The notes below the pieces were generated by a model. That model had not been told where the DNA came from, searched no databases, and saw nothing but the letters and a program-made list of their open reading frames with translations. Source: Solirubrobacterales bacterium (lineage in GTDB: Bacteria; Actinomycetota; Thermoleophilia; Solirubrobacterales; 70-9). From it: a DNA stretch of 64,000 bases. Below, piece after piece: positions 2,947 through 20,698 of the stretch. A program made the translations under genes and the position numbers. The stretch spans positions 648 to 64,647 of the forward strand of contig JBIQLL010000013.1 of assembly GCA_044464425.1 (NCBI GenBank), written 5' to 3'. Each line of letters opens with the position of its first letter. Within the stretch, counting starts at the first letter, position 1.

Positions 2947-4656
2947 GTGAAGGGTTTGTTCAGAGTCACCGTCGGAGCAGCGACGACCGCGCTCGCGTTG
3001 CTGGCCTTCGCCGGCACCGCGACCGCAACCGATTTCTGCGTGCCGGACACCTCTATCCCCGGCTGTCCCGCCGGGGCTGTCGTGCCGCTCGGCAGCGATG
3101 CGGCCGCCAAGATCGAAGGCGGCACGGGCGGCGACCCGGCGGACGGCGTGCCGGACACGGTCCACATCGGGGCGGGCACCTATGCCGATCCGGGCTCGTT
3201 CACCGCGTCTGGGAGCGATCCGCTGACCGTGATCGGGGCTGGGCGTGAGAAGACCTTCCTGACCAGCAGCGCGGCGAGCAACACGTACGTGCTGAACCTG
3301 TTCTCTGGTAATACGCGCGAGATCACGATCCGGGATCTCGCGGTGCTGATCCCGGCCAGCTTCCCGAACAACGCCGGGGCAGGTGTGATCGCCCAGGCCG
3401 ATCGCTTCGAGTCGGTGGATCTGATCAGCCGCAACGAAAAGTCGACCGGCGTCTTCAACCCTGACGGCGGCACCAGCTTCGAGGACTTCCGCGCCTTCGG
3501 CCAGAGCGGCGGCAGCTTCGGGGCGGTCTTCTACCAGTACAACGCCTGCGGCAGCGGGGAGTTCACGATCGACCGGGCCGAGATCAGTGATGCCGGCAGC
3601 GGCCTGATCTGGGCCTGCTCGGAGGTTCCCGCGACCGTCAACCGGATTCACCTTTCGGGGGTCGATGACGCGATCGACGTGAGCAGCGGCGGCCAGGCCA
3701 GCGTCACCAACGCCCTGATCGAGAGTTCGGAAGGCCCACCGATCCGCCTCTACAACGGCTCGAACAAGATCACTTCACTCGCTCTCAACCACCTGACCGT
3801 GGTCGCGACGGGCGATCCGAACCAGCCGGCGATCCGCGCCCGGGTGGATGGCCTCGCGAGCCCGACCAAGAACATCGAGATAAGCCTCGCCAACTCGATC
3901 GTCAGCGGTTTCCAGAACACCTGGAGCCTCGAAGCCCCTTCCGACCCGGTCAAGGGCAACATCAATCTCTCGGCTGCCTACTCGGACCTGATCGGCTCGG
4001 GACTCACCTCGGGCGAGAGCTTCGCCGACCAGTCGACCGGCAACATCGACGCGGCTCCCGGCTTCGCCGGCGCCACCGACTTTCACCTGGTCCCGGGGTC
4101 GCCCGCGATCGACGCCGGCGATCCGCTACCCAACCTGCCCGCCCTGGACCTGGACGGCAAGCTCCGCCCGGTCGACGGGAACGGTGACGGCAACCTGGTC
4201 CGGGATATGGGCGCCTACGAGTTCCAGCCCCCGCCGAGCTGCGAAACCGACCAGTCGCTCTGCCCACCGAGCTGCGAGACAGACCGGTCGTTTTGCGCGC
4301 CGAGCTGCGAAACCGACCAATCGCTCTGCCCGAGTCCACCCGACACGACCGCGCCGGAGGTCACCCGCGTCAAGTTCCGCTTCCGGCGGGGCCGGGGCGG
4401 CGCACTTCGCTTTCGTCTCTCCGAGCAGGCCACGGTCCGGATCCGCTTCGCCCCGATCCCGAGAAAGGCACCGAAAGGCAAGCAGCGCAAGGTCCTGAAG
4501 ATCACCCGCAAGGCCAAGCAGGGCGCGGTGAAGATCAAGCTCGCCAGACGCCGTCTCAAGCCGGGCCGCTATCGCCTCACCATCACCGCAACCGACCAAT
4601 CCGGCAACCGCTCGAAACCTCTCCGCCGAAAGGTCCGGGCCAAGCGCGGCTCCTAG
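2947..4656 (+). CDS. Secreted right-handed beta-helix protein with Cys-loop linker repeats and a basic C-terminal module
   Basis: GTG start. Signal peptide MKGLFRVTVGAATTALALLAFAGTATA. Gly/Asn/Ser-rich beta-helix-like body ending in DLDGKLRPVDGNGDGNLVRDMGAYEF. Then 3 x PSCETDQSLC and a K/R-rich tail. Confidence 0.65.
   Translation: MKGLFRVTVGAATTALALLAFAGTATATDFCVPDTSIPGCPAGAVVPLGSDAAAKIEGGTGGDPADGVPDTVHIGAGTYADPGSFTASGSDPLTVIGAGREKTFLTSSAASNTYVLNLFSGNTREITIRDLAVLIPASFPNNAGAGVIAQADRFESVDLISRNEKSTGVFNPDGGTSFEDFRAFGQSGGSFGAVFYQYNACGSGEFTIDRAEISDAGSGLIWACSEVPATVNRIHLSGVDDAIDVSSGGQASVTNALIESSEGPPIRLYNGSNKITSLALNHLTVVATGDPNQPAIRARVDGLASPTKNIEISLANSIVSGFQNTWSLEAPSDPVKGNINLSAAYSDLIGSGLTSGESFADQSTGNIDAAPGFAGATDFHLVPGSPAIDAGDPLPNLPALDLDGKLRPVDGNGDGNLVRDMGAYEFQPPPSCETDQSLCPPSCETDRSFCAPSCETDQSLCPSPPDTTAPEVTRVKFRFRRGRGGALRFRLSEQATVRIRFAPIPRKAPKGKQRKVLKITRKAKQGAVKIKLARRRLKPGRYRLTITATDQSGNRSKPLRRKVRAKRGS
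4231..4329 (+). repeat. In-frame 33-nt tandem repeat x3 encoding (P/A)PSCETD(Q/R)S(L/F)C
   Basis: Units 4231-4263, 4264-4296 and 4297-4329 read directly. Units 1 and 3 are nearly identical at nucleotide level. Confidence 0.9.
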
Positions 4657-5269: not shown

Positions 5270-5479
5270 ATGAGGACGAATATCGTCATCGACCAGGAGC
5301 TGATGGCCGAAGCCCAGAAGCTGGCCGGCACCGAGACCATGAGAGAAACGGTCGATCTCGCTCTGCGCGAAATGGTCGATCGCCGAAATCGACTCGGAAT
5401 CCTCGAGCTCCGCGGCAAGATCAAGTGGGAAGGTGACCTGGACGAGATGCGCCGGGAATCGCATCGCGAGTTCGATTGA
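5270..5479 (+). CDS. vapB: Type II antitoxin, VapB family
   Basis: MRTNIVIDQELMAEAQKLAGTETMRETVDLALREMV is a typical VapB N-terminus. Its stop overlaps the start of the PIN gene. Confidence 0.8.
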   Translation: MRTNIVIDQELMAEAQKLAGTETMRETVDLALREMVDRRNRLGILELRGKIKWEGDLDEMRRESHREFD

Positions 5480-5880
5480 TCGTCATCGACTCGAGCGTCT
5501 GGATCGATCACCTGAACGAGGTGGACACTCCCCAGGTAGAGGAGATGCGATCGCTGATAGTTGAGGACGTGCTGCTCTGTGTCACGGGGGTGATCGTTAC
5601 GGAAGTTCTTCGAGGCATCTCAAATGAAGCCGATGCGGCGATCGTGGGGCACGAACTATCCGCGTTTCCCGTCCTGAGCATGGATACAGCTCGCGATTAC
5701 GCGGAAGCTGCCGGTCTTTACAGGCGAGCCAGAGCGGTCGGTGTGACCATACGGAGCCTCGCCGACCTCCTGATCGCCGTTCCCTGCATACGCGAGGAGG
5801 CCTGGCTACTCCACAACGATCGTGACTTCGATCAGCTGGCTGCCGTCTCCGACCTGAAAATCTGGGAGCCCAGGGACTGA
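5476..5880 (+). CDS. vapC: Type II toxin, PIN-domain ribonuclease VapC
   Basis: MIVIDSSVWIDHL...NDRDFDQL carries the PIN acidic residues. TTG start has a 4-nt overlap with the vapB stop. Confidence 0.85.
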   Translation: MIVIDSSVWIDHLNEVDTPQVEEMRSLIVEDVLLCVTGVIVTEVLRGISNEADAAIVGHELSAFPVLSMDTARDYAEAAGLYRRARAVGVTIRSLADLLIAVPCIREEAWLLHNDRDFDQLAAVSDLKIWEPRD

Positions 5881-5892
5881 TCCCGAGCCGGT

Positions 5893-5917
5893 CTAGAGGT
5901 GTGGCCACACCCTCTAG
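5893..5917. terminator. Near-perfect 12-bp palindrome (CTAGAGGTGTGG/CCACAC(C)CTCTAG) between convergent genes
   Basis: Read directly. One bulged C. It sits in the 33-nt gap between the vapC stop and the stop of the minus-strand ORF. Confidence 0.45.
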
Positions 5918-6138
5918 GGCTTCGGTCCACCGGGTTGTTCCGAGTGGACCTTGACCAGGAGGTCTTCGATCCGCTCGAGCTCGATCGGCCCGAGCCCGTC
6001 TTCCTCGAAGAAGACCTGGTCGTCGAAGAGGCCGTAGAGGGTGCCGAGCACCTCGCCGCCGTCTTTCAGCTTCAGGTTGATCCGGGCGCCCCGGCCGAGC
6101 CGGGGGATCATCGCGGCGATCTCTTCCTTGGAGGACAC
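5914..6138 (-). CDS. Hypothetical 74-aa protein
   Basis: GTG start. Very high GC3 across the ORF argues for real coding. No recognisable motif and no clear SD. Confidence 0.5.
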   Translation of the reverse strand: MSSKEEIAAMIPRLGRGARINLKLKDGGEVLGTLYGLFDDQVFFEEDGLGPIELERIEDLLVKVHSEQPGGPKP

Positions 6139-6210
6139 AGGGAAACTCTAGGGGGGCGATTCGGATCTCGCTTTCCGCGAGCCGGGTCCCGGCATTTGGT
6201 CAAAAATCTC

Positions 6211-6252
6211 GCAATTTGCATGCTTTTTCGAAAAGTCCTGCAATTTGCGGAC
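6211..6252 (+). promoter_or_regulatory. AT-rich region with direct repeat GCAATTTGC (6211-6219, 6240-6248) upstream of the sigma operon
   Basis: Read directly. It lies in the 312-nt AT-richer gap 6139-6450. The second copy extends to ATTTGCGGAC, which recurs at 40310. Confidence 0.35.
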
Positions 6253-6269
6253 ATTTCCTGAGATCCAGA

Positions 6270-6287
6270 GGGGGAGAGTTTTGTCCG
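6270..6287 (+). repeat. Copy B of exact 18-nt direct repeat GGGGGAGAGTTTTGTCCG
   Basis: Identical to 5184..5201. A 10-nt subset GGAGAGTTTT recurs at 6441-6450, abutting the sigma ATG. Confidence 0.9.
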
Positions 6288-6450
6288 GATGCGGCTTAGT
6301 GCTGCAAATGGAGACTTTTCAGACGTCCCGAGGTGGGGCTGAGTATCTCGCCGTTCAGGACCAGGGTGGGTGGCAAATAGCTCATCCGGTGAATAGAAAA
6401 ACTGTCACAGCGATCAGGATGACCCGAACGCTCAGGACCCGGAGAGTTTT

Positions 6451-7785
6451 ATGACGAAGACCGTCGTTCACGGTAAGAAGCCGGAAACCACCCAGAATCG
6501 ACCCGACGAGGCGGCTCGAAAACGGGTTGCCGTGGAGCTGATCAGGAATCACGATGCGCCGCTGCGATGGACCGCCCGGCGTTACTCGATCTGTGCCGAT
6601 GATGCCGAAGACGCGTATCAGCGGGGAATCGAGATCCTCCTGAAGAAGGCGCCGACCGATGACGCGAGGCAGTTGCTTCCCTGGGTTCGCACGGTCATCA
6701 AGCATGAGGCGCTGGCGATCCGCAAGTCCCGCGAGCGCACCCTTGCTCGCCCCGGGCAGTCCCGGGATGAAGAGCACGAGGACGAGGACTGGGTTCAACT
6801 GATTCCGGCGACCGGGGACGGACCGGATGAGATGGCGGTCCGGCGCGAGCGGGTGGCGCGCAGCCGGGAGGCATTGGCTCAGCTCAAACCGGCCGAGCTC
6901 AAGGCACTGACCCAGATCGCCGAGGGGTTCAGCTACCAGGAGATCGGGGCGATGAACCAGTGGTCTCGCACCAAGGTCAACCGTTGCCTGGCGGAAGGGC
7001 GGGCCCGGTTCCGGAATGCGTTTCGCGACAGCGAGGCGGGCGAGCGGTGCGATGCCTACGCGCCGCTCCTGTCTGCTTGCTGCGACGGCGAGCTGAGCCG
7101 AGGCCAGGTCGTCGAGCTGGAACAGCACCTGGCCGCCTGCGGCCACTGCAGGGCGACCCTGCGCTCGTACCGAGCCGCACCGCGGGCCGCCGCCGCACTC
7201 GCCCCGCTGTTGCCGGCGAGTCATGGTCTCTGGCCGAGGGTTCAGGAGATCGCCGTCGATCTGCAGCTCCGGCTCCAGGGAGCCGGGCACGGATCCGGGT
7301 CCGGGGTCCAGTCCGTCCTCGCCTCGGGCGGAACCCGCGGCGCCGGGATGGCAGCGATGGCCAAGCTGGCAGCGATCTGCGCGGGAACCGCCGGGACCGC
7401 GGCGGTCTGCGTCGCCACCGGCGTCCTCCCGGCTCCCGCCGTTCTCGATCACCACGACCGTCGACCCGACACTCAGGTCCAGGTGCGGAAGGCCACCGCG
7501 GAGCCGCCCCGGCAGCCGATGGTCTTCGTCCAGACAGAGCCCGAGCCGGTCGCCAACGAGCAGCCGCAGCCGGCAGATTCGGAGGTCGGGAAACCCAACG
7601 ACGCCGCTGCGGAGCCGGCCGAACCGGTCGCCAGTTCGACCCCGGGGCCGACGGCGATCGAGTCAGAGTTCACGCCTGAAGCGGCGGGTACACCCGCTCC
7701 GACTTCGGCCCCACCACCACAGCAGCAGCAGGCGACCTCGAGCTCGGTTCCCGTTGGAAACGGTGGAGGGGAGTTCGCGCCATGA
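6451..7785 (+). CDS. ECF-type sigma-70 factor fused to a ZAS (zf-HC2) anti-sigma domain, a TM segment and a Pro/Ala-rich tail
   Basis: Region 2-like DAEDAYQRGIEILL and WVRTVIKHEALAIRKSR. Region 4 HTH FSYQEIGAMNQWSRTKVNRCLAEGRARF. Then CDGEL...EQHLAACGHC (HxxxCxxC), a hydrophobic AAMAKLAAICAGTAGTAAVCVATGVL segment and a PQP-rich tail. Confidence 0.75.
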   Translation: MTKTVVHGKKPETTQNRPDEAARKRVAVELIRNHDAPLRWTARRYSICADDAEDAYQRGIEILLKKAPTDDARQLLPWVRTVIKHEALAIRKSRERTLARPGQSRDEEHEDEDWVQLIPATGDGPDEMAVRRERVARSREALAQLKPAELKALTQIAEGFSYQEIGAMNQWSRTKVNRCLAEGRARFRNAFRDSEAGERCDAYAPLLSACCDGELSRGQVVELEQHLAACGHCRATLRSYRAAPRAAAALAPLLPASHGLWPRVQEIAVDLQLRLQGAGHGSGSGVQSVLASGGTRGAGMAAMAKLAAICAGTAGTAAVCVATGVLPAPAVLDHHDRRPDTQVQVRKATAEPPRQPMVFVQTEPEPVANEQPQPADSEVGKPNDAAAEPAEPVASSTPGPTAIESEFTPEAAGTPAPTSAPPPQQQQATSSSVPVGNGGGEFAP

Positions 7786-10655
7786 GAGGAACCACGAAGC
7801 TGGCGCTATACCTCGCATGCCTGTTCGGAATCTGTCTGGCTTTGCCCGGCGTGGCTAACGCGGGTACTTTCGCGATGAAGCAGTGTCTTGGGTCTGGTCA
7901 GCTCGACTTTCAGGGCTCGTACATGTCAGTCAACGGAAGCGATCTGGTCGACGCGGTCAACGGCTGCACGACTACCGGGCCGGGCAAGATCGGCGTTTAC
8001 CAGGACCGAAGCGGCCAAGACCTTTCCTACGGCGAGGGTGGCCAGTTCCTGTGGAGCGCACCTAGTGGGACCAGGGTGATCGGGACCGAGTTCGCCGCGA
8101 GGCTGAAGGACGCGAACGGAATCCGGGCGGAGCTGATCGGCTCCGACGGAACCCGGGTAACGGAGATCGATGGCGGGGTCGCCCACGATGGGAGCCAGCA
8201 GGTGGGCAGCTGGTCCGGGTCAACGAGGCCGCAATCTTTCATCGCTGCTCGGATCGGGTGCCGGCGGACGAACAAGTGCGAGAACCAGTCCTCTTCGGCT
8301 AAAGCGTTCATGGAAGTGACCGACGTCGAGTTCACGGTCCAGGACACCGCCCCGCCGTCGGCGACAGCGTCGGGAGAGCTGTGGAGCTGGTCCGCGGATT
8401 CGTCGTATCACCACGGCAGCGGCTCGATCTCGGTCAGCGCCTCCGACCGGGGTTCAGGCATCTCGGGCGCCTGGGCCGAGGTAAACGGCCTGCGGGTCAA
8501 CTTCAGCGCGGTGAACTGCCCGGGAGACAAGGGTTCCTACGCGACCCGCTTCACCCCCTGTCCCGCGACGTTCGCCGGCTCGAGAACCCTTGATACGTCG
8601 GTCGCCCCGTTTCAAGAAGGGGTCAACTGGATCAGGGTCTGTGTGAGGGATTACGCGAGCTCCGATGTAGCCGCCAACCGGACCTGCTCTGCCCTGCGGA
8701 AGGTGCTGATCGACAACCAGCCATCGAACCCGCCGGTCAATCTGAGGTCGCACCAGGGCGCCGGCTGGCAGCCGGAGAACGGCTTCGAGCTGAGTTGGGG
8801 GATCCCGGACGGGCAGACCTCGCCGATCACCGGCGCGGTCTACCTGCTTTACGAACTGGAATCCGGAGCGAAGGTCGCCGGCGGCTATTTCCCCGGCAAC
8901 GGGGTCACCTCAGGCGGCCCGATCGAGGTTCCCGAGGTCGGCGCCTACAGAGTGGTGCTCTACCTCGGGGACGGCGCGCTGAACCTCGGCATGCCGGCAG
9001 AAACCATCGTTCGCTTCGATGACCGTCCCCCTGGGAACGTCGATCCGGAGCCGGCCGGTGGCTGGGTCTCGCGTGATGAGCTGCCGCTCGAACAGGAGAT
9101 CGAGCGAGCCGAACCAGGCGGGCCGTCCGGGGTTTCCGGCTACGCCCTGACGGTCTCCGACGGGGGTCCGGACCAACCCTGCGGGGGAGGCATCTGCGCC
9201 GGGCCCGAGATCACGCTGACCGGTGGCGCCGACTTTCGAACCGGCTCGATCGGCGGCCTCGGCGAAGGCAGCCACTGGATCTCGGCCGCTGCGGTATCCG
9301 GAGCGCACAGGTCTTCCGTGGAACCCGGCAGCACGCTGGTCCGGGTCGACCGGACGCCGCCCTCCTCGTCGATCTCCGGGGTGCCGAACGAGTGGGTCAA
9401 CCATCCGGTGACGCTGACCGTCGAGGCGAATGACCGGCTCTCCGGCATGCGGCCCGTAGCCGGCGACGAGGGTGAGCCGGAAACCGTGATCGACGCCGAC
9501 AGTTACGCGACCTATCGAGCGCCGGGACCGATCGCCACCTTCGCGGTTGCCACCGAAGGCGTGAACCGGATCAGGTACTGGGCCGAGGACCTCGCCGGCA
9601 ACGCGAACGACGGGCAGCCGGGATCGGGTGATGAGAGCCACGCCGCCCCGGGGCGGGCGCTAGTCAGGATCGACCTCACGCCGCCCGAGGTCAGGTTCGA
9701 TCCGTCTCGGGACCCGGAGGATCCCGAGGCCGTGCTGGCCGAGGTAGATGACGCCGACTCCGGAGTTGCCTCCGCCTCGATCGGGATCCGCCGCGCTGGG
9801 TCCAAGGCCGATTTCAAGCCTTTGCCGACCACCGGGGATGGAGAGATCTACCGGGCGAGGATCCCCTCGGATGACCTCGCGCACGGCGCCTACGAGCTGG
9901 CCGCCACCGTCAGGGACCGGGCCGGGAACGAAAGCACCGGCAACCAGACCACGAGTGGCCAGCCGATGATCCTCAACCTTCCCCTGAAGCAGCCCACGCG
10001 CCTGAGTGGGATCCTCCGGAAAGGCCGGCGGAGCATCACGACCAGGTACGACTCTCGCCGCTACGCGCAAGGCCGGTTGACCAGTCGCGGCGAGGCCTTG
10101 GCCCACCAGACCGTGCAGGTCGTCGAGAGATTCGCCACTGGTTCGAGAAGAGTCGTCCGTACCCGCGAACGGACGACCGACGGCGACGGGCGCTATCGAC
10201 TTCCTCTCGCCGCCGGTCCGTCTCGCACGATCGAGGTCAGGTTCGGCGGCACCCCGAAAATGTCCCGGGCAGACAGCCCCCGGCTGCGCTTGAACGTGAA
10301 GGGGAAAGTCTCCTTCCGGATCAGGCCGGGCAAGGTGTTCAACGGCGGAACGGTCCTGATGAAGGGAAGAGTCGGCTTCAAGGGCGCCCTGCCGCCGGCC
10401 CGGGGCAAGCTGGTCGCGATCCAGTACCTCGATCCCACCCGGAGCAAATGGCGACCGGTGGAGGTGCTCAGGACCGATCGCCGGGGGCGCTTCCGTTACC
10501 GCTACCGGTTCCGGACCATCAGCTCGGCCCAGCGCATCGTCTTCCGGGCGAGCGCCCTTCAGGAGGCCGGCTGGCCGTACCTGCCCTCGACAGCGAAGCC
10601 CCGATCGGTCATTGTGTACCCGAAGGGACGAACCAACCGGAAGGAGGCCGAATGA
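7782..10655 (+). CDS. Large secreted multi-Ig-like-domain surface protein
   Basis: ATGA overlap with the sigma gene. Signal peptide MRGTTKLALYLACLFGICLALPGVANA. Repeated domain boundaries D(T/R)(A/T)PP with DxxSG(V/I) motifs. C-terminal CarboxypepD_reg-like stretch (TTDGDGRYRL). Confidence 0.75.
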   Translation: MRGTTKLALYLACLFGICLALPGVANAGTFAMKQCLGSGQLDFQGSYMSVNGSDLVDAVNGCTTTGPGKIGVYQDRSGQDLSYGEGGQFLWSAPSGTRVIGTEFAARLKDANGIRAELIGSDGTRVTEIDGGVAHDGSQQVGSWSGSTRPQSFIAARIGCRRTNKCENQSSSAKAFMEVTDVEFTVQDTAPPSATASGELWSWSADSSYHHGSGSISVSASDRGSGISGAWAEVNGLRVNFSAVNCPGDKGSYATRFTPCPATFAGSRTLDTSVAPFQEGVNWIRVCVRDYASSDVAANRTCSALRKVLIDNQPSNPPVNLRSHQGAGWQPENGFELSWGIPDGQTSPITGAVYLLYELESGAKVAGGYFPGNGVTSGGPIEVPEVGAYRVVLYLGDGALNLGMPAETIVRFDDRPPGNVDPEPAGGWVSRDELPLEQEIERAEPGGPSGVSGYALTVSDGGPDQPCGGGICAGPEITLTGGADFRTGSIGGLGEGSHWISAAAVSGAHRSSVEPGSTLVRVDRTPPSSSISGVPNEWVNHPVTLTVEANDRLSGMRPVAGDEGEPETVIDADSYATYRAPGPIATFAVATEGVNRIRYWAEDLAGNANDGQPGSGDESHAAPGRALVRIDLTPPEVRFDPSRDPEDPEAVLAEVDDADSGVASASIGIRRAGSKADFKPLPTTGDGEIYRARIPSDDLAHGAYELAATVRDRAGNESTGNQTTSGQPMILNLPLKQPTRLSGILRKGRRSITTRYDSRRYAQGRLTSRGEALAHQTVQVVERFATGSRRVVRTRERTTDGDGRYRLPLAAGPSRTIEVRFGGTPKMSRADSPRLRLNVKGKVSFRIRPGKVFNGGTVLMKGRVGFKGALPPARGKLVAIQYLDPTRSKWRPVEVLRTDRRGRFRYRYRFRTISSAQRIVFRASALQEAGWPYLPSTAKPRSVIVYPKGRTNRKEAE

Positions 10656-11083
10656 GAGGGATACCACGACCGTCACCGGCGATGGTCGTCGCCCTGATCG
10701 CACTCGTCGTCGCGGTCGGCGGCACCGCAGCCGCGTTGCCCGGAAAGTTCACGGTTGGCCGGGATGATCTGAAAACCTCGTCGGTTGGGGCGAGGGCGCT
10801 CGGCAAGATGCTGGTCGGTTACAGCCAAGTGGTCAAGTCACGGGATCCCGTCGCGGGCGATGGTCATTTCACCGAGACTCGGGGCTCTATCCGGTGTCCT
10901 GCCAAATCTCCCACCGCTCTAGATCCATCGATTGCCAATATGAGCCAGTTCGCTTTTGAACTCCGACGTACTGCGGTTTCAAATCGATTTGGGGCTCCTG
11001 TTGGCTACCAATTCATCGTGAGCGGAGACGAAGGGCCGGAGATTGGCTACACAATGACCGTCAACTGCCTCTTCAAGCGCTGA
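10652..11083 (+). CDS. Small N-terminally membrane-anchored protein
   Basis: ATGA overlap with the upstream gene. MRGIPRPSPAMVVALIALVVAVGGTAAALPGK anchor. The 3' half is visibly more AT-rich. Confidence 0.6.
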   Translation: MRGIPRPSPAMVVALIALVVAVGGTAAALPGKFTVGRDDLKTSSVGARALGKMLVGYSQVVKSRDPVAGDGHFTETRGSIRCPAKSPTALDPSIANMSQFAFELRRTAVSNRFGAPVGYQFIVSGDEGPEIGYTMTVNCLFKR

Positions 11084-11108
11084 TTCTCGAGCTGCCACTC
11101 GTTAAGGA

Positions 11109-11135
11109 CCAACGGCCCCGAGGAGGGGCCGTTGG
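11109..11135 (+). terminator. Perfect 11-bp stem / 5-nt loop hairpin
   Basis: CCAACGGCCCC-GAGGA-GGGGCCGTTGG, 26 nt after the stop at 11083, between convergent genes. Confidence 0.7.
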
Positions 11136-11233
11136 CGAGGGAGGAGAGGTACTACATCGACTGACGAGGTTATGAGGTCAGCCGATCTTCTCCGGGTTGC
11201 CGCTCTCCGTCGGCAGCCGGGCTAAGTGTTGGT

Positions 11234-11857
11234 CTAGACCAGAGCCTGAAGCTGCTCCGTGACCTTGTTGACGAAGTCCTGGGCCTTCTTGCCCTGCTCC
11301 TCGGCGACCTTACTGACATCGGCCTGGGCCTGGTTGGCACGCTTGGTCACTTCGGACACGCGGGCCTCGATCTGCTTGTTGACGTCCTTGTTCGTCGTCT
11401 TGATCGTCTTCTCGAAGCTCTTGCGCTGCTTGCGGACGGTCTTCTCGAGCGAGTTGCGGCGCTTCTTGGCGCGAGTGGTCGCCTTGCGGCGGGTGGTGGT
11501 GCCACGGCGCTCGGCGCGCTTGACGGTCTTGGTCAGGTCGGCGCGGTAGCCCTTGACCTTCTTCTCGGCGGAAGTCTGGTCGGTCCAGTCCTCGATCACC
11601 TCGGAAACCCGGTCGGCCAGGTTGAGGGCGGCGCCCACCGGCACGTCTACGGCCTTCTTCGCGTACTCGACGGCGGTCTCTTCGACCTCTTCGAGGCGGC
11701 TCTTGGCGTTCTCGGCGTCCAGCTGGGCGGCGTGGACGGCCTTCTTGTTGGCCTCGGCGCGGAGCTGGGCAGCGGTCCGCGGCTTCGCGGCCTTCTTAGC
11801 GGCCGGCTTCTTCGCGGTGCTCTTCTTGGCGGTGGTTTTCTTCTTGGTCTCGGCCAT
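11234..11857 (-). CDS. Lys/Ala-rich coiled-coil protein (histone-H1/HbhA/phasin-like composition)
   Basis: ATG at 11857 gives MAETKKKTTAKKSTAKKPAAKKAAKPR followed by long heptad-like helices. It has a long AT-rich upstream region. Confidence 0.7.
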   Translation of the reverse strand: MAETKKKTTAKKSTAKKPAAKKAAKPRTAAQLRAEANKKAVHAAQLDAENAKSRLEEVEETAVEYAKKAVDVPVGAALNLADRVSEVIEDWTDQTSAEKKVKGYRADLTKTVKRAERRGTTTRRKATTRAKKRRNSLEKTVRKQRKSFEKTIKTTNKDVNKQIEARVSEVTKRANQAQADVSKVAEEQGKKAQDFVNKVTEQLQALV

Positions 11858-12120
11858 CGGAATCAGTAAGTCCTTTTCTGTGGAAAGTAGATTACTTACT
11901 TCTAAGGATGTTTGAAGTGTAGCAGTGAAATACGAACACATGTTCTTTTTTCATGTGATCTCCGTCACTGATGAGTTTTCCGCTCCATAGAGCCGAAAAG
12001 AGGCCGTGAACTGGCTGCAAACCACGTTGCAAGCCGCGAATCGGCCTCGAGCGGACGTTCGTGTTCGCCTCGCCTCCGGTCATCCAGAGGCCGGCCGGAG
12101 GATCCTTCAGGGAGGGCTGA

Positions 12121-12969
12121 TCAGCCGATCTGGCGGGCCGCGACGAGCGTGTCCAGGCCCTCGCCGGTGGCGGCGACGGTGATCGGGAAGCGGTTCTCCA
12201 GCGCCAGGTCGACCTGGCCGAGCCCGCCGTCGCCGAGATCGACCAGGGCCCCGGCCTCGCGGGCGATCAGCTGGCCGGCCGCCACATCGACCGATCGAGA
12301 GAGCTGGGGAAAGGTGAGACCGTCGAAGCGGCCCGCCGCGACCGAGACGATCGAGATCGCGAGCGAACCGGTGGTGCGGACCCGGTAGACCTTGCCGGCC
12401 AGCCGGTCGAGCATCGGCGCGAGCCGGACCGGGTCGGCTCCCTCGACCCCGACCACCTCGAGGCCGTCATGCGGCTCGAGCGAGAGGCGCTCCTCGTTCA
12501 GGTACGCGCCCTCACCCGACTGGGCGAGGAACTCCTCGTCCGTCCCGAAGTCGAATACATAGCCGAACTCGACCGCGGCCATGTTCGGCGCCGTGGCGAC
12601 GGCGATCGAGAGGCTGTGGGCGGGAATGGTCCGCTTGAAGTTGAGCGAGCCGTCGATCGGGTCGATCACCACCCAGACCTTGCCGCCCTCGTTGAAGGTG
12701 ACCGTGCCTCGCTCTTCGGAGATCGCGGTGAAGGCCGCGCCGCCACCCTCGGCGAGCTTCTCCAGCTCGGCGAAGACGAGGTCCTCGCATTTGCGGTCGA
12801 GAACCAGGGTGTGGTCGCCGCCCTCGCCGACTCCTTCGTACTCGTCACGCTTCTCGAAAGTGTCGAACTCGGCGAAGAGCTTCTTCTGCTGCTCGACGAT
12901 GCGACGGCAGATCCCCGTCCAGTCGGCGTCAAGCGCGGGATCCGGTGGCAATTGATTCACCCGCGACAT
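12121..12969 (-). CDS. Inositol monophosphatase / FBPase family protein
   Basis: WVVIDPIDGSLNF and the surrounding metal-binding motifs of the IMPase family. Confidence 0.85.
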   Translation of the reverse strand: MSRVNQLPPDPALDADWTGICRRIVEQQKKLFAEFDTFEKRDEYEGVGEGGDHTLVLDRKCEDLVFAELEKLAEGGGAAFTAISEERGTVTFNEGGKVWVVIDPIDGSLNFKRTIPAHSLSIAVATAPNMAAVEFGYVFDFGTDEEFLAQSGEGAYLNEERLSLEPHDGLEVVGVEGADPVRLAPMLDRLAGKVYRVRTTGSLAISIVSVAAGRFDGLTFPQLSRSVDVAAGQLIAREAGALVDLGDGGLGQVDLALENRFPITVAATGEGLDTLVAARQIG

Positions 12970-13012: not shown

Positions 13013-16000
13013 GTGAGTGATCCCGTCTCCAGATCCGGTGCCGAGAGCGATCCCGGCCCCGGCAGGGACCGGGTCCGCGAGCATGGATCCGGGGCTCTCC
13101 TGATCCGCGGTGGCGCCGGCACCGGCAAGAGCACGGCGCTGCGCGAACGGGTGGCCCGACTGGCCGAGACCGGGCTCGATCCGTCGCGGATCGCGCTGAT
13201 CGCCTCGACCGACCGCTCGGCCGCCGCCCACCGGGTCCAGCTCGAGAACGACCTGCCCGGACCCTACGAGGCACTTTCCGTGTTCACCTGGGAGGGCCTG
13301 GCCGAAGAGATCCTCCGTCACCGTCCGATCGAGGCCGGCCTCGGGCCCTCCTTCGAGGTGGTCGGTGCCGCCGAGCGGTTGGCCATGCTGCTGGCCCGGG
13401 TCGAGGAGCTGCCGCTGCGTCACCACGAGATCCGGGGCAACCCCGCCGGCCTGCTCCGCGAGCTCCTGATCGGCATCGACCAGGCCAAGCGCAACGGGGA
13501 GGACGGCGGTGAGCTGGCCGAGCTGATCGAGATCCACAACCGGATCCTCGCCGCGGCCGACCTGCTCGATCGCAACGACCTGCCTCGCATCGCCGCCGAG
13601 CTGCTCGCCGACCCGGCGATCGCGAAAGAGACCCTCGTCCGCTTCCCCCACCTGGTGATCGACGAGCTCGAGGATCTCCATCCGGCCCGGGCCGGCCTGC
13701 TGGAGAGGCTGGCGACCGCGGGGCCGGAGAGCATCGTCGCCGCGATCGACCCTTCCCGGGCGATCTACGGTCCCGGAGCCGAAGAGCGATTCCTGGCCGC
13801 AGTTCCGGAGCCGGACTCCTTCACGCTCGACGAGGCCTGGCGGATGAGCGAGCTGCGAATCACCGCGGCCAAGGCCGCCCTGGGAACCGGTCCGCTGCCC
13901 GAGGGGGCCTGGGAGGCGCGCGGCACCGAGGGCTCGGTCCGCTACTGGCGGCCCACCTCGGCCCGGGCCGAGGCCCAGGCGGCGGCCCGAGAAGTCGAGC
14001 ACCAGATCGCCGCCGGCACCCCGCCCGAGGAGCTGGCGATCGCGGTGCCGGACGTGAACTCGCAGGGAGGGGCGATCGTCGGTGCCCTGGCGGAACGCGG
14101 GATTCCCGCGAGGGCCGGGGGCGGCGCGGCGCTGTTCCGCCAGCCCGAGGTCCGCGACACGATCGCCTGGCTCAGGGCGCTCTCCGACCCGACCGACACC
14201 CGGGCGGTCACCCGGGCGCTGATGCGGCCGCCGACCGAGCTTCGCTCGCTGGATCTCGCCCGGCTCACCCAGATCTCGAAACGCCGCAAGCTCGACATGG
14301 TCAGCGCCTGCGAGGCGGCCCTCGGGTCACCGCAGATGGCCCCCGAGGCCCGCCAGCGGATCGAGGCCTTCCTGAATCTCTACCGGGCGGCCTCCGGGGC
14401 AATCGACACCCGGCGACCGGACGCGTACGTGAGGCGATTGATCGAGCGGATCGGCTTCCGGCGGCAGCGGCTCTTCGCCGCCCGGCCCGAAACCGCCGAA
14501 CGGCTGCTCGGACTCTCGCGCCTGGCCGCGATCGCGACCGACTTCTCGCGCCGCGACCCGGACGCCTCGGTGCGCGAGTTCACGGCGTTCCTCGAAGCGC
14601 TGGCCGAAGGGGGGCTCGAACCGGCCGGCGGCCCCGACCTGCCCGGCGCCGGGGCGGTGCCGGTGGTGGGGCTCGACCTGCTGAAGGGTGGCGAGTGGAC
14701 GCGGATCTGGGTGCTGGGGCTGGAACGGCCGTTCGGCATCACCCGCACCCCCGGCCCGGGCATCGGCGAAGGCCCGACCCATCCCGGCGGCCCCGAGACC
14801 GCCCGGGTCGCGGTCGCGACCGCGCTCACCTCGGCCTGGGAAGAGGTGGTGCTCTCGCGGGCCGGTGACGTCGAGCCGGACCCGGTCGCGGCGATCCTCG
14901 AGGCGACCGGCGGCCTGGAGGAGATCCACGAGGAGGAGCTGTTCGGCCCGGCCGAGGATGTCGCGGCGATGTACCGGACGATGCGGGACGAGGTGATCGA
15001 GGCGTCCTGGAAGGCGGGCTCCGAGCTGAACGAACCGCGCCTCGACACGGCGATTGACGTGAACCGGGCGGTCGCCCGCTACCTCGAGCTGCTGAAGCTG
15101 GCCGCGCTCGCCCAGCGCGACGACGGGGCCAGCGACGAAGAGGCGATCGACGCGGTCAACGGCCTGCTCGCCCAGATCGCGACGCCGGAACAGCTGGCTG
15201 AGCTGGACGCATCCACGCTCGATCCTTACCTGCTGGCCGGCGAACGGGAGCGGGGCGCACGCCAGGGCCTGATCGACTCCCGCACCGAGCCTTCGCTCGA
15301 CGCTTTCCTGCCGCGTCGCGGCGATGACCTCCGGCTCTCGGCCACCGACCTCGACATGTACCTGACCTGCCCGCTCAAGTACAAGTTCGCTCGCGTCTTC
15401 GGGATCCCGACCCCGCCGACCGTGAACATGCGCTTCGGGATCGTGATCCACAACGTCCTGCAGCGTTTCCACGAAATGGAGCAGGACGTCGGCCGGCCGG
15501 TTCCCGACGGCGAGGCCCGGCTGATGGGACTGCTCGAAGAGGGCTGGCGCCGGGGCGGCTTCGGCGAGTCCCACGATGAGCTGCAGTTCCTCGACCGGGC
15601 CCGCGACGCGATGCGCGCCTACTGGCGAAGCGAAGAGAGCTCCGAATCCGAGCCGGCCTTCCTGGAGCGGCAGTTCGAGTTCAAGGTCGGCCCGCACTAC
15701 CTGCGCGGCCGGGTCGACCGGGTCGACCGTGCCCCCGACGGCGAGTTCGAGGTGATCGATTACAAGACCGGCCAGCGGATCGACTCCTCCCGCCACGGCG
15801 GCGACATCCAGCTCGCGCTCTACCGGCTCGGCGCCCGCGAGGCCTGGGGCATCGAACCGGGGGCCGGCAGCTACTACTACGTGCTCGAGGGCGAGAAGGT
15901 CGCGGTCGAGTCTTCCCCCGATGACCGCGAACGGGTCGAACGGACCGTGCTCGAGGTCGGCGAAGGGGTGCTCGGCCAGGACTTCGAGCCGCGTCCCTCA

Positions 16001-16057
16001 CCCCAGGTCTGCGGCTGGTGCGACTTCAGGCTGGTCTGCCCGGCCGCCGAGGCCTGA
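13013..16057 (+). CDS. UvrD-like ATPase fused to a C-terminal PD-(D/E)XK (RecB/Cas4-like, Cys-containing) nuclease; AdnA/AddB-like
   Basis: Walker A GGAGTGKST. DExx-like VIDELED. C-terminus has YLTCPLKY, GRVDRVDR...EVIDYKTG and CGWCDFRLVCP. Confidence 0.8.
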   Translation: MSDPVSRSGAESDPGPGRDRVREHGSGALLIRGGAGTGKSTALRERVARLAETGLDPSRIALIASTDRSAAAHRVQLENDLPGPYEALSVFTWEGLAEEILRHRPIEAGLGPSFEVVGAAERLAMLLARVEELPLRHHEIRGNPAGLLRELLIGIDQAKRNGEDGGELAELIEIHNRILAAADLLDRNDLPRIAAELLADPAIAKETLVRFPHLVIDELEDLHPARAGLLERLATAGPESIVAAIDPSRAIYGPGAEERFLAAVPEPDSFTLDEAWRMSELRITAAKAALGTGPLPEGAWEARGTEGSVRYWRPTSARAEAQAAAREVEHQIAAGTPPEELAIAVPDVNSQGGAIVGALAERGIPARAGGGAALFRQPEVRDTIAWLRALSDPTDTRAVTRALMRPPTELRSLDLARLTQISKRRKLDMVSACEAALGSPQMAPEARQRIEAFLNLYRAASGAIDTRRPDAYVRRLIERIGFRRQRLFAARPETAERLLGLSRLAAIATDFSRRDPDASVREFTAFLEALAEGGLEPAGGPDLPGAGAVPVVGLDLLKGGEWTRIWVLGLERPFGITRTPGPGIGEGPTHPGGPETARVAVATALTSAWEEVVLSRAGDVEPDPVAAILEATGGLEEIHEEELFGPAEDVAAMYRTMRDEVIEASWKAGSELNEPRLDTAIDVNRAVARYLELLKLAALAQRDDGASDEEAIDAVNGLLAQIATPEQLAELDASTLDPYLLAGERERGARQGLIDSRTEPSLDAFLPRRGDDLRLSATDLDMYLTCPLKYKFARVFGIPTPPTVNMRFGIVIHNVLQRFHEMEQDVGRPVPDGEARLMGLLEEGWRRGGFGESHDELQFLDRARDAMRAYWRSEESSESEPAFLERQFEFKVGPHYLRGRVDRVDRAPDGEFEVIDYKTGQRIDSSRHGGDIQLALYRLGAREAWGIEPGAGSYYYVLEGEKVAVESSPDDRERVERTVLEVGEGVLGQDFEPRPSPQVCGWCDFRLVCPAAEA

Positions 16058-19414: not shown

Positions 19415-20698
19415 TCAGGCCTCGTCGAGCTCCTTGAACTTCTCGGCCATCGTCGGGTTGCTCCGGGTCAGCTTCTTGATCGAGACGTCCTGCGCCTTGT
19501 CGTTGGCAAGACGCAGGTTGTTGGCGGACTTGAGCAGCGAGCTCTTGGTCTTCTCCAGGTTCTTGATCGACTTGTCGATCTCGTTGATCGCGTCCTCGAA
19601 CTGGCGCGAAGCGAGACCGTAGTTGCGCTGGAAGCCGGTCTTGAAGGTCTCCAGCTTCTCCTCGAAGTTGGTGATGTCGATGTTCTGGGCCCTGACCTGG
19701 GCCAGTTCGGATTTGAGCTTCAAGGTCTTGAAGGCCTCGTTGCGGATCAGGGTGATGATCGGGATGAAGAACTGCGGCCGGACCACATACATCCTCGGGT
19801 AGAGATGTGAGACGTCGACGATGCCGGCGTTGTAGAGCTCGTTCTCCGGCTCCAGCAGCGAAACCAGCACGGCGTACTCGCAGCCCTTCTCGGTCCGGTC
19901 GTTGTCGAGCTTCCGGAAGAAGTCCTCGTTCTTCTTCTTGTTGGCGCCCTCGTCGAGCTCGTTCTTCATCTCGAACATGATCGAGACGAACTCGGTGCCC
20001 GATTCGTCGGACTCGCGAAAGATGAAGTCGCCCTTGGTGCCGGCGCTCGCGTCGTTGTCCTTCCCGAAGTCCGCGTTCGGGAACGCGGCGGCCCGAATCT
20101 TGTTGAACTCGATCTCGCAGTGCTGCTCCAGGGTCTCGCCGACCATCTTGGTGGACAGCTTCGCCTTCATGTCCTTCAGGCGGTCGATTGTGTCGTCGCG
20201 ATCCCTGAGCTGGATCTCGAACTTCTCTGTGAGCGACTTTTCACGCAGCTTCTGCTCGGTTTCCCGTGAATCGAGATCCCGCCTGAGGTCGTCGCGCTCC
20301 TTCTCGACACCGCTCAGGGCTTCCTTCAGGGCCAGCTTGCCGGCCACATCCGCCTTCTCGAGCTCCGCCTTGAGGCGTTCGATCTCGGCGTCCTTCCTGG
20401 CGGCTTCGTCTTTCAGCTCTCCGGCGGCCTTGGCCTGGGCCAGCTCACCGCTCGTCTTCAGCTCCTCCTTGAGACGTTCGATTTCCAGGTTTTTCGCGGC
20501 AGCGACGTCCTTGAGCTGGCTCGCGACCTTGGTCTCGGCCAGCTCGATCGCATTCTTCTTTTCCTGCTCGGCGAGTTCCAGCCGCTCATGGAGGGCCTTG
20601 TCGAAGGCTTCGTCGCGTACCTGGTTCAGGATGTCCGCGTAACCGGCCTCGTCAATGTTGAAAGCTTTTCCGCAATGCGGGCACTTGATCTCGTGCAT
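19415..20698 (-). CDS. DUF2130-family protein (N-terminal zinc ribbon, long coiled coil, C-terminal nuclease-like core)
   Basis: MHEIKCPHCGKAFNIDEAGYADILNQVRD is the characteristic DUF2130 N-terminus. C-terminus has GDFIFRE...IMFEMKNE. Confidence 0.8.
   Translation of the reverse strand: MHEIKCPHCGKAFNIDEAGYADILNQVRDEAFDKALHERLELAEQEKKNAIELAETKVASQLKDVAAAKNLEIERLKEELKTSGELAQAKAAGELKDEAARKDAEIERLKAELEKADVAGKLALKEALSGVEKERDDLRRDLDSRETEQKLREKSLTEKFEIQLRDRDDTIDRLKDMKAKLSTKMVGETLEQHCEIEFNKIRAAAFPNADFGKDNDASAGTKGDFIFRESDESGTEFVSIMFEMKNELDEGANKKKNEDFFRKLDNDRTEKGCEYAVLVSLLEPENELYNAGIVDVSHLYPRMYVVRPQFFIPIITLIRNEAFKTLKLKSELAQVRAQNIDITNFEEKLETFKTGFQRNYGLASRQFEDAINEIDKSIKNLEKTKSSLLKSANNLRLANDKAQDVSIKKLTRSNPTMAEKFKELDEA

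Follow-up and report, generated by a model that had tools for sequence, protein, structure and literature searches.

The ECF48, ECF52 and ECF53 groups of Actinobacteria have been described as fusions of a sigma factor, a zinc finger and a transmembrane segment, for which proteolytic activation is predicted. In ECF48 and ECF53, by their description, the sigma is extended C-terminally by up to 400 residues, which include one or two transmembrane helices besides a ZAS-like zinc finger, and neither group has an experimentally studied member; none of the three groups is mentioned in the NAR 2021 main text. Experimental work on sigma/anti-sigma fusions is confined to two proteins: SCO4117 (ECF52, Streptomyces coelicolor), of which a truncated form is active and autoregulated, and IutY (Pseudomonas putida), which is processed by Prc and RseP and whose truncated sigma is constitutively active. 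An earlier note on the DNA studied here, made from the letters alone, had called such fusions essentially unstudied, which is too strong for a class that is catalogued and has two experimentally worked members. How a sigma factor escapes an inhibitor within its own chain is a question that the family described below could address, and envelope signalling in Solirubrobacterales, a little-studied soil order, is almost a blank.

The window, a 64,000-nt (64-kb) stretch of DNA, comes from a Solirubrobacterales bacterium. The order belongs to the class Thermoleophilia, phylum Actinomycetota, which places the locus within the Actinobacteria, to which ECF52 is also restricted. The fusion gene and its parts are as follows:

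6451..7785, plus strand: 444-aa fusion of an ECF sigma factor, a ZAS anti-sigma domain, a transmembrane segment and an acidic tail (ORF, Pfam and NCBIfam matches, homologues)
6538..6738, plus strand: sigma region 2 (aa 30-96; PF04542)
6865..7008, plus strand: sigma region 4 (aa 139-186; PF08281 below cut-off, inside the TIGR02937 match)
7042..7290, plus strand: ZAS-type anti-sigma domain (aa 198-280; C200, C211, H226-x3-C230-x2-C233; PF13490)
7351..7440, plus strand: single transmembrane segment (aa ~301-330; hydropathy peak), rich in Gly, Ala, Thr and Cys and preceded by AKLAA
7441..7782, plus strand: acidic Pro-rich tail (aa 331-444; composition, alignment) with the motifs ESEFTPEAAGTP (7660-7695) and C-terminal GGGEFAP (7762-7782)

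The earlier note had read three successive genes here; all three ORFs are present at the coordinates given, and ATGA overlaps join them at both junctions (7782-7785 and 10652-10655).

Profile searches, which the note had proposed as a check, bore out two of its three Pfam domains: Sigma70_r2 (PF04542) matches aa 30-96 with 27.8 bits (cut-off 24) and zf-HC2 (PF13490) matches aa 200-234 with 27.5 bits (cut-off 22.2). The other, Sigma70_r4_2 (PF08281), reaches 15.5 bits on aa 139-186, under its cut-off of 25.7; the NCBIfam sigma70-ECF model TIGR02937 covers aa 29-190 with 48.7 bits (cut-off 42.9), and relatives score 26-34 bits with Sigma70_r4_2, above the cut-off. Typical motifs of regions 2.1-2.4 and 4.2 are invariant in the alignment, and region 2 carries an invariant DAEDAYQRG..EILL motif (alignment A1). 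As expected of an ECF factor, regions 1.1 and 3 are absent, the linker between sigma2 and sigma4 is short (~25 acidic residues of low pLDDT, aa 100-124), and there are no further domain matches. AlphaFold2 models aa 20-100 and 140-190 with pLDDT >90 (94-98 at 140-190). The best Foldseek matches of the model are ECF sigmas in holoenzyme and anti-sigma complexes, SigW/RsiW and SigH among them, over ~170-190 aligned columns, with global rmsd values (10-21 Å) that do not separate closed from open sigma. By its domains the 444-aa protein is an ECF (group IV) sigma-70 factor, with sigma activity predicted. We judge it extremely improbable that the core instead serves for docking or as a decoy, like that of PhyR. 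Such a role would fit the low domain scores (region 2 just over its cut-off, region 4 under it) and a PDB sequence search that returned no match at E<=0.01, but the TIGR02937 score, the region 4 scores of relatives, the invariant motifs and the structural matches to bona fide ECF sigmas all speak against it, and a receiver or partner-switch module is absent.

The ZAS ligands C200, H226, C230 and C233 are invariant across 58 sequences, as is the extra C211, with a C-x25-H spacing, and zinc binding by C200/H226/C230/C233 is predicted. In the AlphaFold2 model, this domain forms four helices (200-211, 217-229, 231-250 and 261-277, with pLDDT 77-94 for the first three), and a four-helix class I anti-sigma fold is thus predicted for aa 198-280; only about three residues separate sigma4 from the first of these helices. 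A mean-field direct-coupling analysis of 322 sequences, which was underpowered (Meff 177), enriched intradomain pairs 2-2.6-fold but not pairs between sigma and anti-sigma domain. One hydrophobic segment only lies between the anti-sigma domain and the tail, the single-pass layout of RseA/RsiW-type anti-sigma factors, and its residues K305, C310, G315, C320, A322, G324 and P327 are invariant. A second ORF with an HxxxCxxC motif (19415-20698, minus strand) proved to be an unrelated DUF2130 protein.

The invariant ligand set raises the alternative of a cytoplasmic input, in which the ZAS domain is the sensor, for thiol oxidation or loss of zinc, and a conformational switch frees the core, the protein staying whole and its anchor serving only for localisation. 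Soluble ZAS proteins such as RsrA and RshA release their sigma factors by such a switch. The extra Cys211, the invariant Cys48 and Cys179 of the sigma core, and a weak NCBIfam similarity of the 444-aa protein to RsrA-type and anti-sigma-E models all agree with this reading. Nevertheless, we consider it unlikely: a tethered sigma would need to bring RNA polymerase and DNA to the membrane, many ZAS domains are not redox sensors, and the invariant transmembrane residues, together with conserved extracytoplasmic motifs (below), favour an input from outside.

The continuity of the reading frame is independently supported. A Logan contig of 17.6 kb (depth 11.8) agrees with 6100-11200 throughout, with zero differences or gaps, and in a different soil sample short contigs across 6996-7287 show zero indels, which at the level of contigs, as distinct from raw reads, excludes a frameshift or stop artefact between the sigma and anti-sigma parts. 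An apparent joint, 7455>11125, in two runs was traced to two stretches of 22-25 nt that match an unrelated 16.8-kb contig by chance.

The fusion is also conserved throughout its family. Full-length homologues form more than 120 clusters when grouped at 90% identity; at 50% identity there are 326 clusters (E<=1e-30), whose matches extend across the sigma as well as the ZAS part. The architecture is kept in 79/79 informative related genome loci and the transmembrane segment in 73 of the 74 complete sigma ORFs of relatives, so that the single polypeptide read in the earlier note is genuine. Of the 80 related loci, most carry the label Solirubrobacterales and a few Actinomycetes/Actinomycetota, Conexibacteraceae or, once, uncultured bacterium; two short contigs are binned as Gemmataceae and Acidobacteriota. 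The window contains no paralogues of the three proteins. Because spurious ORFs are numerous in high-GC DNA, all-against-all clustering of ORFs gave a noisy result and served for coarse synteny only.

The two genes that follow the fusion are:

7782..10655, plus strand: 957-aa secreted multi-beta-sandwich protein, its start overlapping the sigma stop (ATGA; AlphaFold2, Foldseek)
9987..10652, plus strand: C-terminal part of the same protein (aa 736-957), a basic module of two beta-sandwich domains (charge)
10652..11083, plus strand: 143-aa small protein with an N-terminal hydrophobic segment, its start overlapping the 957-aa stop (ATGA)

The 957-aa protein begins with a signal-like helix and is modelled as all-beta, with ~8-9 sandwich domains (mean pLDDT 88.9) that match tandem Ig/FN3/macroglobulin (MG) arrays in Foldseek. 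The repeated Ig-like units described previously are therefore borne out, although 'giant' overstates the protein. No ligand-binding or enzymatic domain was recognisable in it with Pfam or Foldseek, and Pfam's CarboxypepD_reg matches aa 765-823 weakly. Its charge is strongly divided, with +40 on aa 736-957 vs -36 on aa 26-735, and the last 220 residues of its homologues have a median net charge of +21 (40 loci); in the most divergent clade, the best match to the 957-aa protein falls in the C-terminal part. In 61/70 loci the gene immediately after the sigma gene encodes a homologue, with an NTGA overlap in 40, and a detectable partner is missing at the remaining 9/70. The 957-aa gene is thus a conserved and often translationally coupled partner.

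The small gene has a narrower range. Its product has 90 homologue clusters, mostly of exactly 143 aa, and ~70 homologues of this identical size support the start codon. It has no Pfam family, and its N-terminal hydrophobic stretch may act as an anchor or be cleaved off as a signal peptide (AAA|LPG). The gene is found only beside the ~950-aa partner type, in the window's own subclade, and is therefore not a core part of the system. Of the three-gene arrangement whose synteny the earlier note had proposed to test, the sigma and 957-aa pair is conserved and the 143-aa gene is not, outside one subclade.

The tail of the fusion (114 aa, 18% Pro, net charge -10) is disordered in the AlphaFold2 model, and Pfam finds no domain after the transmembrane segment in the 444-aa protein or in 10 relatives of 508-620 aa. 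Short aromatic motifs in it are nonetheless conserved clade by clade, the exact C-terminus included. Tails ending in EF[GA]P-COOH pair with a long downstream partner in 34/35 loci and those ending in FG[IF]E-COOH with a divergent short partner or none in 29/29, a co-variation that is confounded by phylogeny. Some of the conservation of GGGEFxP may stem from the Shine-Dalgarno sequence that its codons supply for the next gene (GGAGGGGAGTTC).

Upstream of the operon, a motif scan revealed two further elements:

6210..6249, no strand assigned: two copies of an 11-bp palindrome, CGCAA-W-TTGCG (6210-6220 and 6239-6249)
6270..6300, plus strand: promoter-like two-block element, a G-box GGGGGAGAG ~20 nt past the proximal palindrome with CTTAGT 16 nt later

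These copies are the sole matches to the palindrome in 64 kb, and the G-box/CTTAGT motif has a single strict match in the window, so that a regulon search found both at no other site within the 64 kb. Across the family, 74/80 loci have the palindrome in the 400 nt before the sigma gene, where it occurs 104 times, against 12 occurrences elsewhere in 1.16 Mb; in 69/83 loci a G-box follows it at one of the fixed distances 20/21 or 29 nt. The hexamers ~17 nt downstream of the G-box differ by clade. Reading the blocks as GGAAC-N17-CGT or TTGACA-N17-TANNNT fits some clades only (e.g. GCAAAT-N17-CGTTCG, four loci), and for this reason no promoter was assigned. A scan of 5850-11300 for consensus sigma-70 promoters and T-tract terminators found none, a uORF behind the G-box is not conserved, and nothing in 5800-11400 came near any Rfam gathering score.

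Two further features flank the operon:

5914..6138, minus strand: divergent 74-aa conserved gene, a subclade-specific neighbour (called in L081-L083)
11084..11233, minus strand: conserved structured non-coding element containing the 11109-11135 hairpin (DNA identity, consensus fold)

The 74-aa gene has no Pfam family and recurs with 61-69% identity in loci L001-5 and L008, where its position relative to the sigma start is -284 to -625. The strong hairpin at 11109, which the earlier note had placed after the three genes, is real (11-bp GC stem, z = -3.8, no T-run) but belongs to an element of the convergent gene rather than to the three-gene operon. This 150-nt element is 73-97% identical at the DNA level in 9 loci, is conserved more strongly than the proteins of the operon, and is linked to the convergent gene; its consensus fold contains compensatory pairs and an invariant CU-rich run. 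It has no Rfam family (11060-11260 was also scanned) and is probably a 3' UTR, an sRNA or the terminator of that gene.

It is possible, though we doubt it, that the 957-aa and 143-aa proteins are mere output of an autoregulated surface-remodelling operon, with the tail acting as a spacer or protease substrate and the sensor encoded elsewhere. ECF sigmas commonly autoregulate their own operon according to the literature, neither a ligand-binding nor an enzymatic domain is recognisable in the partner, which is missing from nine loci, the 143-aa gene is subclade-specific, and anionic wall polymers are an equally possible ligand of the basic C-terminal module. On the other hand, the overlap of 4 nt, seen in 40 loci, implies that the two proteins are made stoichiometrically, which would be unusual for pure output, and neither the conserved tail motifs nor their co-variation with partner class is explained in this way.

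From the architecture, conservation, gene pairing and motifs observed here, we infer cis-inhibition, proteolysis and binding between tail and partner. On balance we favour a reading in which the 444-aa protein is an inactive, membrane-tethered ECF pro-form that is freed by proteolysis and gated by the secreted 957-aa protein through its binding to the tail. The sigma2/sigma4 core (aa ~20-196) would be held in cis by the class I zinc-binding anti-sigma domain, and the Gly/Ala/Cys-rich transmembrane segment would tether the pro-form with its 114-aa tail outside the cell. Activation would consist of tether removal, beginning with an extracytoplasmic cut in the tail, followed by intramembrane cleavage of the helix-poor transmembrane segment near the conserved AKLAA and then by loss or displacement of the anti-sigma domain. 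That such a cis-inhibited, tethered sigma needs proteolysis, as the earlier note had supposed, matches the published prediction for the architecturally identical ECF48/52/53 and has been shown for the hybrid IutY.

The sigma and 957-aa genes would be co-transcribed, with translational coupling in most relatives, and the 957-aa protein is most likely an extracytoplasmic partner that binds the aromatic/acidic motifs of the tail and gates its cleavage, standing in for the carbohydrate-binding domain built into the chain of ECF52 proteins. We propose this partner because the charges are complementary (-10 for the tail, +40 for the C-terminal module of the partner, with the family median of +21) and because tail-motif class co-varies with partner class. 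Several points weigh against the pro-form model: a processive protease starting from the new C-terminus would need to halt before the sigma core, some loci have no partner, and there is no linked site-2 or PDZ protease in the window or in the conserved neighbourhood, nor an M50-like motif in any ORF of the window. Proteases of the site-1/S2P type are usually unlinked to the genes of their substrates.

More speculatively, and with low confidence, the pair may form a split envelope sensor, in which the partner, made in a fixed ratio, docks on the tail motifs, namely EFTPEA... and, at the free C-terminus, ...GGGEFxP-COOH, and keeps a tail-recognising protease away from them, loss of contact leading to intramembrane proteolysis and sigma release. 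The secreted partner would possibly be wall-associated via its basic C-terminal module. This logic is analogous to the protection of RseA by RseB and, if true, would be a previously undescribed way to gate a sigma/anti-sigma fusion. The family offers an invariant zinc site, an invariant helix-poor transmembrane segment with AKLAA, two or three tail motifs, a nearly obligatory coupled secreted partner and a conserved upstream operator/promoter, and these handles reduce the question of release to a small set of mutagenesis and binding experiments.

Of the known systems, ECF52 (SCO4117) likewise combines an actinobacterial ECF core, zf-HC2, a transmembrane segment and a Pro-rich extracytoplasmic stretch in one polypeptide, with proteolytic release proposed. 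ECF52 ends in a carbohydrate-binding module, whereas the 444-aa protein and the 10 long relatives have no globular C-terminal domain, and the Solirubrobacterales family instead encodes a separate secreted beta-sandwich protein directly downstream. ECF48 and ECF53, compared by their descriptions rather than by group HMMs, share the same design of sigma, ZAS-like zinc finger and transmembrane segment. IutY (ECF243) also holds sigma, anti-sigma and transmembrane parts in one chain activated by regulated proteolysis, but its anti-sigma part is of the FecI/FecR type rather than ZAS, it has a globular periplasmic domain, and it serves proteobacterial cell-surface signalling via a TonB-dependent receptor. 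The SigW/RsiW, SigR/RsrA, SigH/RshA and SigE/ChrR pairs share the HxxxCxxC motif with its upstream Cys and the four-helix anti-sigma domain, and RsiW, which crosses the membrane once, is eliminated through site-1 and site-2 proteolysis; in these systems, however, sigma and anti-sigma are two genes, which are fused in the 444-aa protein. Three aspects of the family appear new: the almost constant pairing of the fusion gene with a secreted beta-sandwich gene directly downstream that has a basic C-terminal module, the clade-specific tail motifs that co-vary with the type of downstream protein, and the upstream 11-bp palindrome and G-rich box in 69-74 of ~80 loci.

The sigma module comprises three open reading frames (ORFs), which lie where the earlier note had placed them, and the ATGA overlaps it claimed are present at both gene junctions:

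6451–7785, plus strand: sigma fusion protein of 444 aa (ORF call)
7782–10655, plus strand: protein of 957 aa (ORF call)
10652–11083, plus strand: protein of 143 aa (ORF call)

In the 444-aa product, Sigma70_r2 (aa 30–96) and zf-HC2 (aa 200–234) matched above their Pfam cut-offs. The Sigma70_r4_2 match (aa 139–186) fell below its cut-off, although the full-length ECF model TIGR02937 exceeded its own across aa 29–190, and relatives of the protein pass the r4_2 cut-off. The ZAS signature reads H226-LAA-C230-GH-C233, and upstream of it lies C200, with 25 residues between C200 and H226, a gap equal to that of the fourth zinc ligand of RsrA (C11 to H37). One hydrophobic segment (aa ~301–330) precedes a 114-aa tail that is 18% proline with a net charge of −10. 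Residues invariant across 58 sequences include the region 2 motif DAEDAYQRG..EILL, residues T174, V176, N177, R178 and C179 of the region 4 helix-turn-helix, the zinc-site cysteines and histidine with one further cysteine (C200, C211, H226, C230 and C233), and K305, C310, G315, C320, A322, G324 and P327 in or beside the transmembrane segment. A cytoplasmic input, either redox or zinc, is an unlikely alternative to sensing through the tail.

AlphaFold2 modelled the sigma2 and sigma4 helices with pLDDT >90 and the transmembrane segment and tail with low confidence; four helices within aa 200–277 are taken to be the anti-sigma domain. The top PDB matches of the model in Foldseek are ECF sigma factors, including SigH and SigL from M. 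tuberculosis initiation complexes, SigE/RseA, AlgU/MucA, SigK/RskA and SigW/RsiW. A reading of the sigma core as a decoy is very unlikely. Direct-coupling analysis (322 sequences, underpowered at Meff 177) recovered intradomain contacts, with no enrichment of pairs between sigma and the anti-sigma domain.

The sigma/anti-sigma fusion is not an artefact. A landfill metagenome contig from Logan, a database of contigs assembled from sequencing runs, covers 6100–11200 with zero differences from the window, and short contigs from a second soil sample span the sigma4/ZAS junction with no indels; this support comes from assembled contigs, not raw reads. The uninterrupted frame described in the earlier note holds, with no frameshift in independent contigs and with the fusion kept in its relatives: among 80 loci from GTDB species genomes, HxxxCxxC and the sigma core share one ORF in all 79 whose sequence reaches the motif, and 73 of the 74 complete sigma ORFs have one transmembrane segment. 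A word-indexed search returned >120 homologue clusters at 50–72% identity, nearly all of 410–480 aa with r2 and zf-HC2 matches, and the named ones are Solirubrobacterales or Thermoleophilia metagenome-assembled genomes. An exhaustive HMMER search with aa 20–280 found 326 clusters (50% identity) at E≤1e-30, the matches listed covering the sigma and ZAS parts alike.

The proposed coupling to the 957-aa gene is borne out in relatives. Of 70 loci with enough sequence, 61 have a homologue directly 3' of the sigma gene in the same orientation, and in 40 of these 61 its first codon overlaps the stop codon of the sigma gene (NTGA). Forms of ~950 aa characterise the window's subclade, those of ~660 aa have aa 318–940 in common with the 957-aa protein, and those of ~540 aa, in the most divergent clade, mostly match the C-terminal part only. 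The protein is strongly polarised in charge (net +40 for aa 736–957, against −36 for aa 26–735), and in 40 loci the median net charge of the partner's last 220 residues is +21. Its model is confidently all-beta (pLDDT 88.9), with ~8–9 sandwich domains, and its structural matches are generic tandem Ig/FN3/macroglobulin arrays only. Together with weak Pfam matches to Big_13, CarboxypepD_reg and an OmpL47-type barrel, these make 'Ig-like surface protein' a fair label, though not a 'giant' one. Beyond one subclade, the three-gene arrangement is conserved only as the sigma–partner pair. The 143-aa gene, whose homologues form 90 clusters, most of them of precisely 143 aa, and match no known family, adjoins only the ~950-aa form, which makes it a subclade-specific accessory.

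In nearly every relative the sigma tail is acidic (net ~−3 to −17), and it carries short, conserved aromatic motifs that depend on the clade and always include the exact C-terminus:

Window clade: internal E(S/Q)EFTPEAAG; C-terminus GGGEF(A/G)P-COOH
Second clade: internal GAVEY(A/T)PP; C-terminus SAAGEFGP-COOH
Third clade: internal RQF(G/S)(V/F)E and GEFGGP; C-terminus GGFGIE(K/G)-COOH
Conexibacter-like loci: internal QFSFES; C-terminus PQFGFEQ-COOH

In the window, the last sigma codons (GGA GGG GAG TTC GCG CCA TGA, within 7762–7785) also supply the 957-aa gene with its Shine-Dalgarno sequence and its start (ATGA), so peptide and translation-coupling constraints overlap here, and part of the C-terminal conservation in this clade may be at the DNA level. 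Such overlap cannot account for the conservation of the internal copies, and the tail is not just a spacer. EF[GA]P tails accompany a long partner in 34 of 35 loci; FG[IF]E tails accompany a divergent short partner or none (29 of 29). This pairing fits co-evolution, with phylogeny as a confounder. That the partner is only an output of the sigma factor is a less likely alternative to its acting on the tail.

The region 5' of the sigma gene holds two copies of an 11-bp palindrome, CGCAA-W-TTGCG (6210–6220 and 6239–6249), the only ones in the 64 kb. The motif lies within 400 nt upstream in 74 of 80 loci and is specific to this region, with 104 copies there versus 12 in the other 1.16 Mb. Across the related loci (L001–L083) its position relative to the sigma start ranges from −60 to −330, and pairs of copies 32–34 nt apart, about three helical turns, are frequent. 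A G-rich box, GGGG[GC]GAG, follows the proximal copy by 20/21 or 29 nt in 69 of 83 loci (6270–6278 in the window), and ~17 nt past it comes a hexamer that differs between clades: CTTAGT in the window (6295–6300) and TCACCT or GCTCTA elsewhere. Together these look like a putative operator and an unusual two-block promoter; neither a canonical sigma-70 nor a GGAAC/CGT pattern fits the blocks across all clades, so we assign no promoter class. In the window's subclade a divergent gene shares this region:

5914–6138, minus strand: conserved 74-aa protein (MSSKEEIAAMIPRLGRGARINLKLKDGGEVLGTLYGLFDDQVFFEE...)

Confined to the subclade with the ~950-aa and 143-aa genes, it has no Pfam family; its sequence pattern gives the impression of small Sm-like/SH3-like beta proteins. 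Directly upstream of this gene lies a VapB antitoxin/PIN-domain VapC toxin pair (~5270–5880, plus strand), in the same position in locus L082 and further upstream in L081. A further secreted protein, of 569 aa, is encoded at 2947–4656 (plus strand). It has a choice-of-anchor Q domain (NF041518, 38 bits) and three copies of a Cys repeat resembling PPSCETDQSLC; its C-terminal domain is Ig-like and very basic, reminiscent of the basic C-terminal part of the 957-aa protein. Many relatives (L009, L012, L015, L019, L021, L049, L082 and L083) have a gene of the UDP-sugar epimerase/dehydratase type (MSTCVITGGAGFLGSHL...) as the divergent neighbour upstream of the sigma gene, a hint that the module may be connected with the synthesis of envelope polysaccharides.

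Downstream, the module is followed by:

11084–11233, minus strand: 150-nt conserved intergenic element (DNA identity in 9 loci, compensatory base pairs)
11234–11941, minus strand: Lys-rich 235-aa protein, no family
12121–12969, minus strand: inositol monophosphatase-like protein
13013–16057, plus strand: UvrD/PD-(D/E)XK helicase-nuclease

The last three genes are kept downstream of the module in 31–35 related loci, which places it in a stable chromosomal neighbourhood rather than a mobile element. The strong hairpin noted at 11109 exists, but belongs to the 150-nt element on the side of the convergent gene. The element is 92–97% identical in the three closest loci, where the sigma protein is only 68–70% identical, and 73–86% in six more. 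On the minus strand it begins at the stop codon of the Lys-rich gene; a hairpin supported by compensatory changes and a CU-rich run that never varies (ACCUCUCCUCCCUCGCC) lie within it, and the GC hairpin forms its end. No Rfam family matches it. In L001–L003 it follows the Lys-rich gene, not the 143-aa gene. It looks like a conserved 3'UTR-derived or independent sRNA-like element of the Lys-rich gene, and may also terminate the sigma operon. The CU-rich run is anti-Shine-Dalgarno-like and, speculatively, the element's CUCUCCUCC could pair with the G-box GGGGGAGAG at 6270–6278.

Beyond the architecture, conservation, partner-gene pairing and motifs observed in this family, the families involved suggest a mechanism. 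The ZAS domain would hold sigma in cis, and the protein would be membrane-tethered and inactive. The tail would be cut first, intramembrane cleavage of the Gly/Ala/Thr/Cys-rich transmembrane segment near AKLAA would follow, and sigma would then be freed. RseA, by analogy, is cleaved after ...VAA. We further infer that the secreted partner may bind the tail motifs and gate the first cut.

The fusion itself will not surprise an ECF specialist; a family this large and clean makes removal of the fused anti-sigma a testable question. By architecture, the 444-aa protein is built like the ECF48, ECF52 and ECF53 fusions and predicted to work alike, proteolytic release of a tethered, cis-inhibited sigma being a published prediction for these groups. 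Truncated SCO4117 is active, and proteolytic activation by Prc and RseP has been demonstrated for IutY, a FecI/FecR hybrid of a different type from ours. The conserved partner gene, C-terminal tail motifs and upstream operator, of which the accessible literature on such fusions makes no mention, appear new. ECF52 proteins contain a carbohydrate-binding module, reported as a separate ORF for the S. clavuligerus SCO4117 orthologue, whereas the 444-aa protein has none; here the secreted partner would replace this in-cis module.
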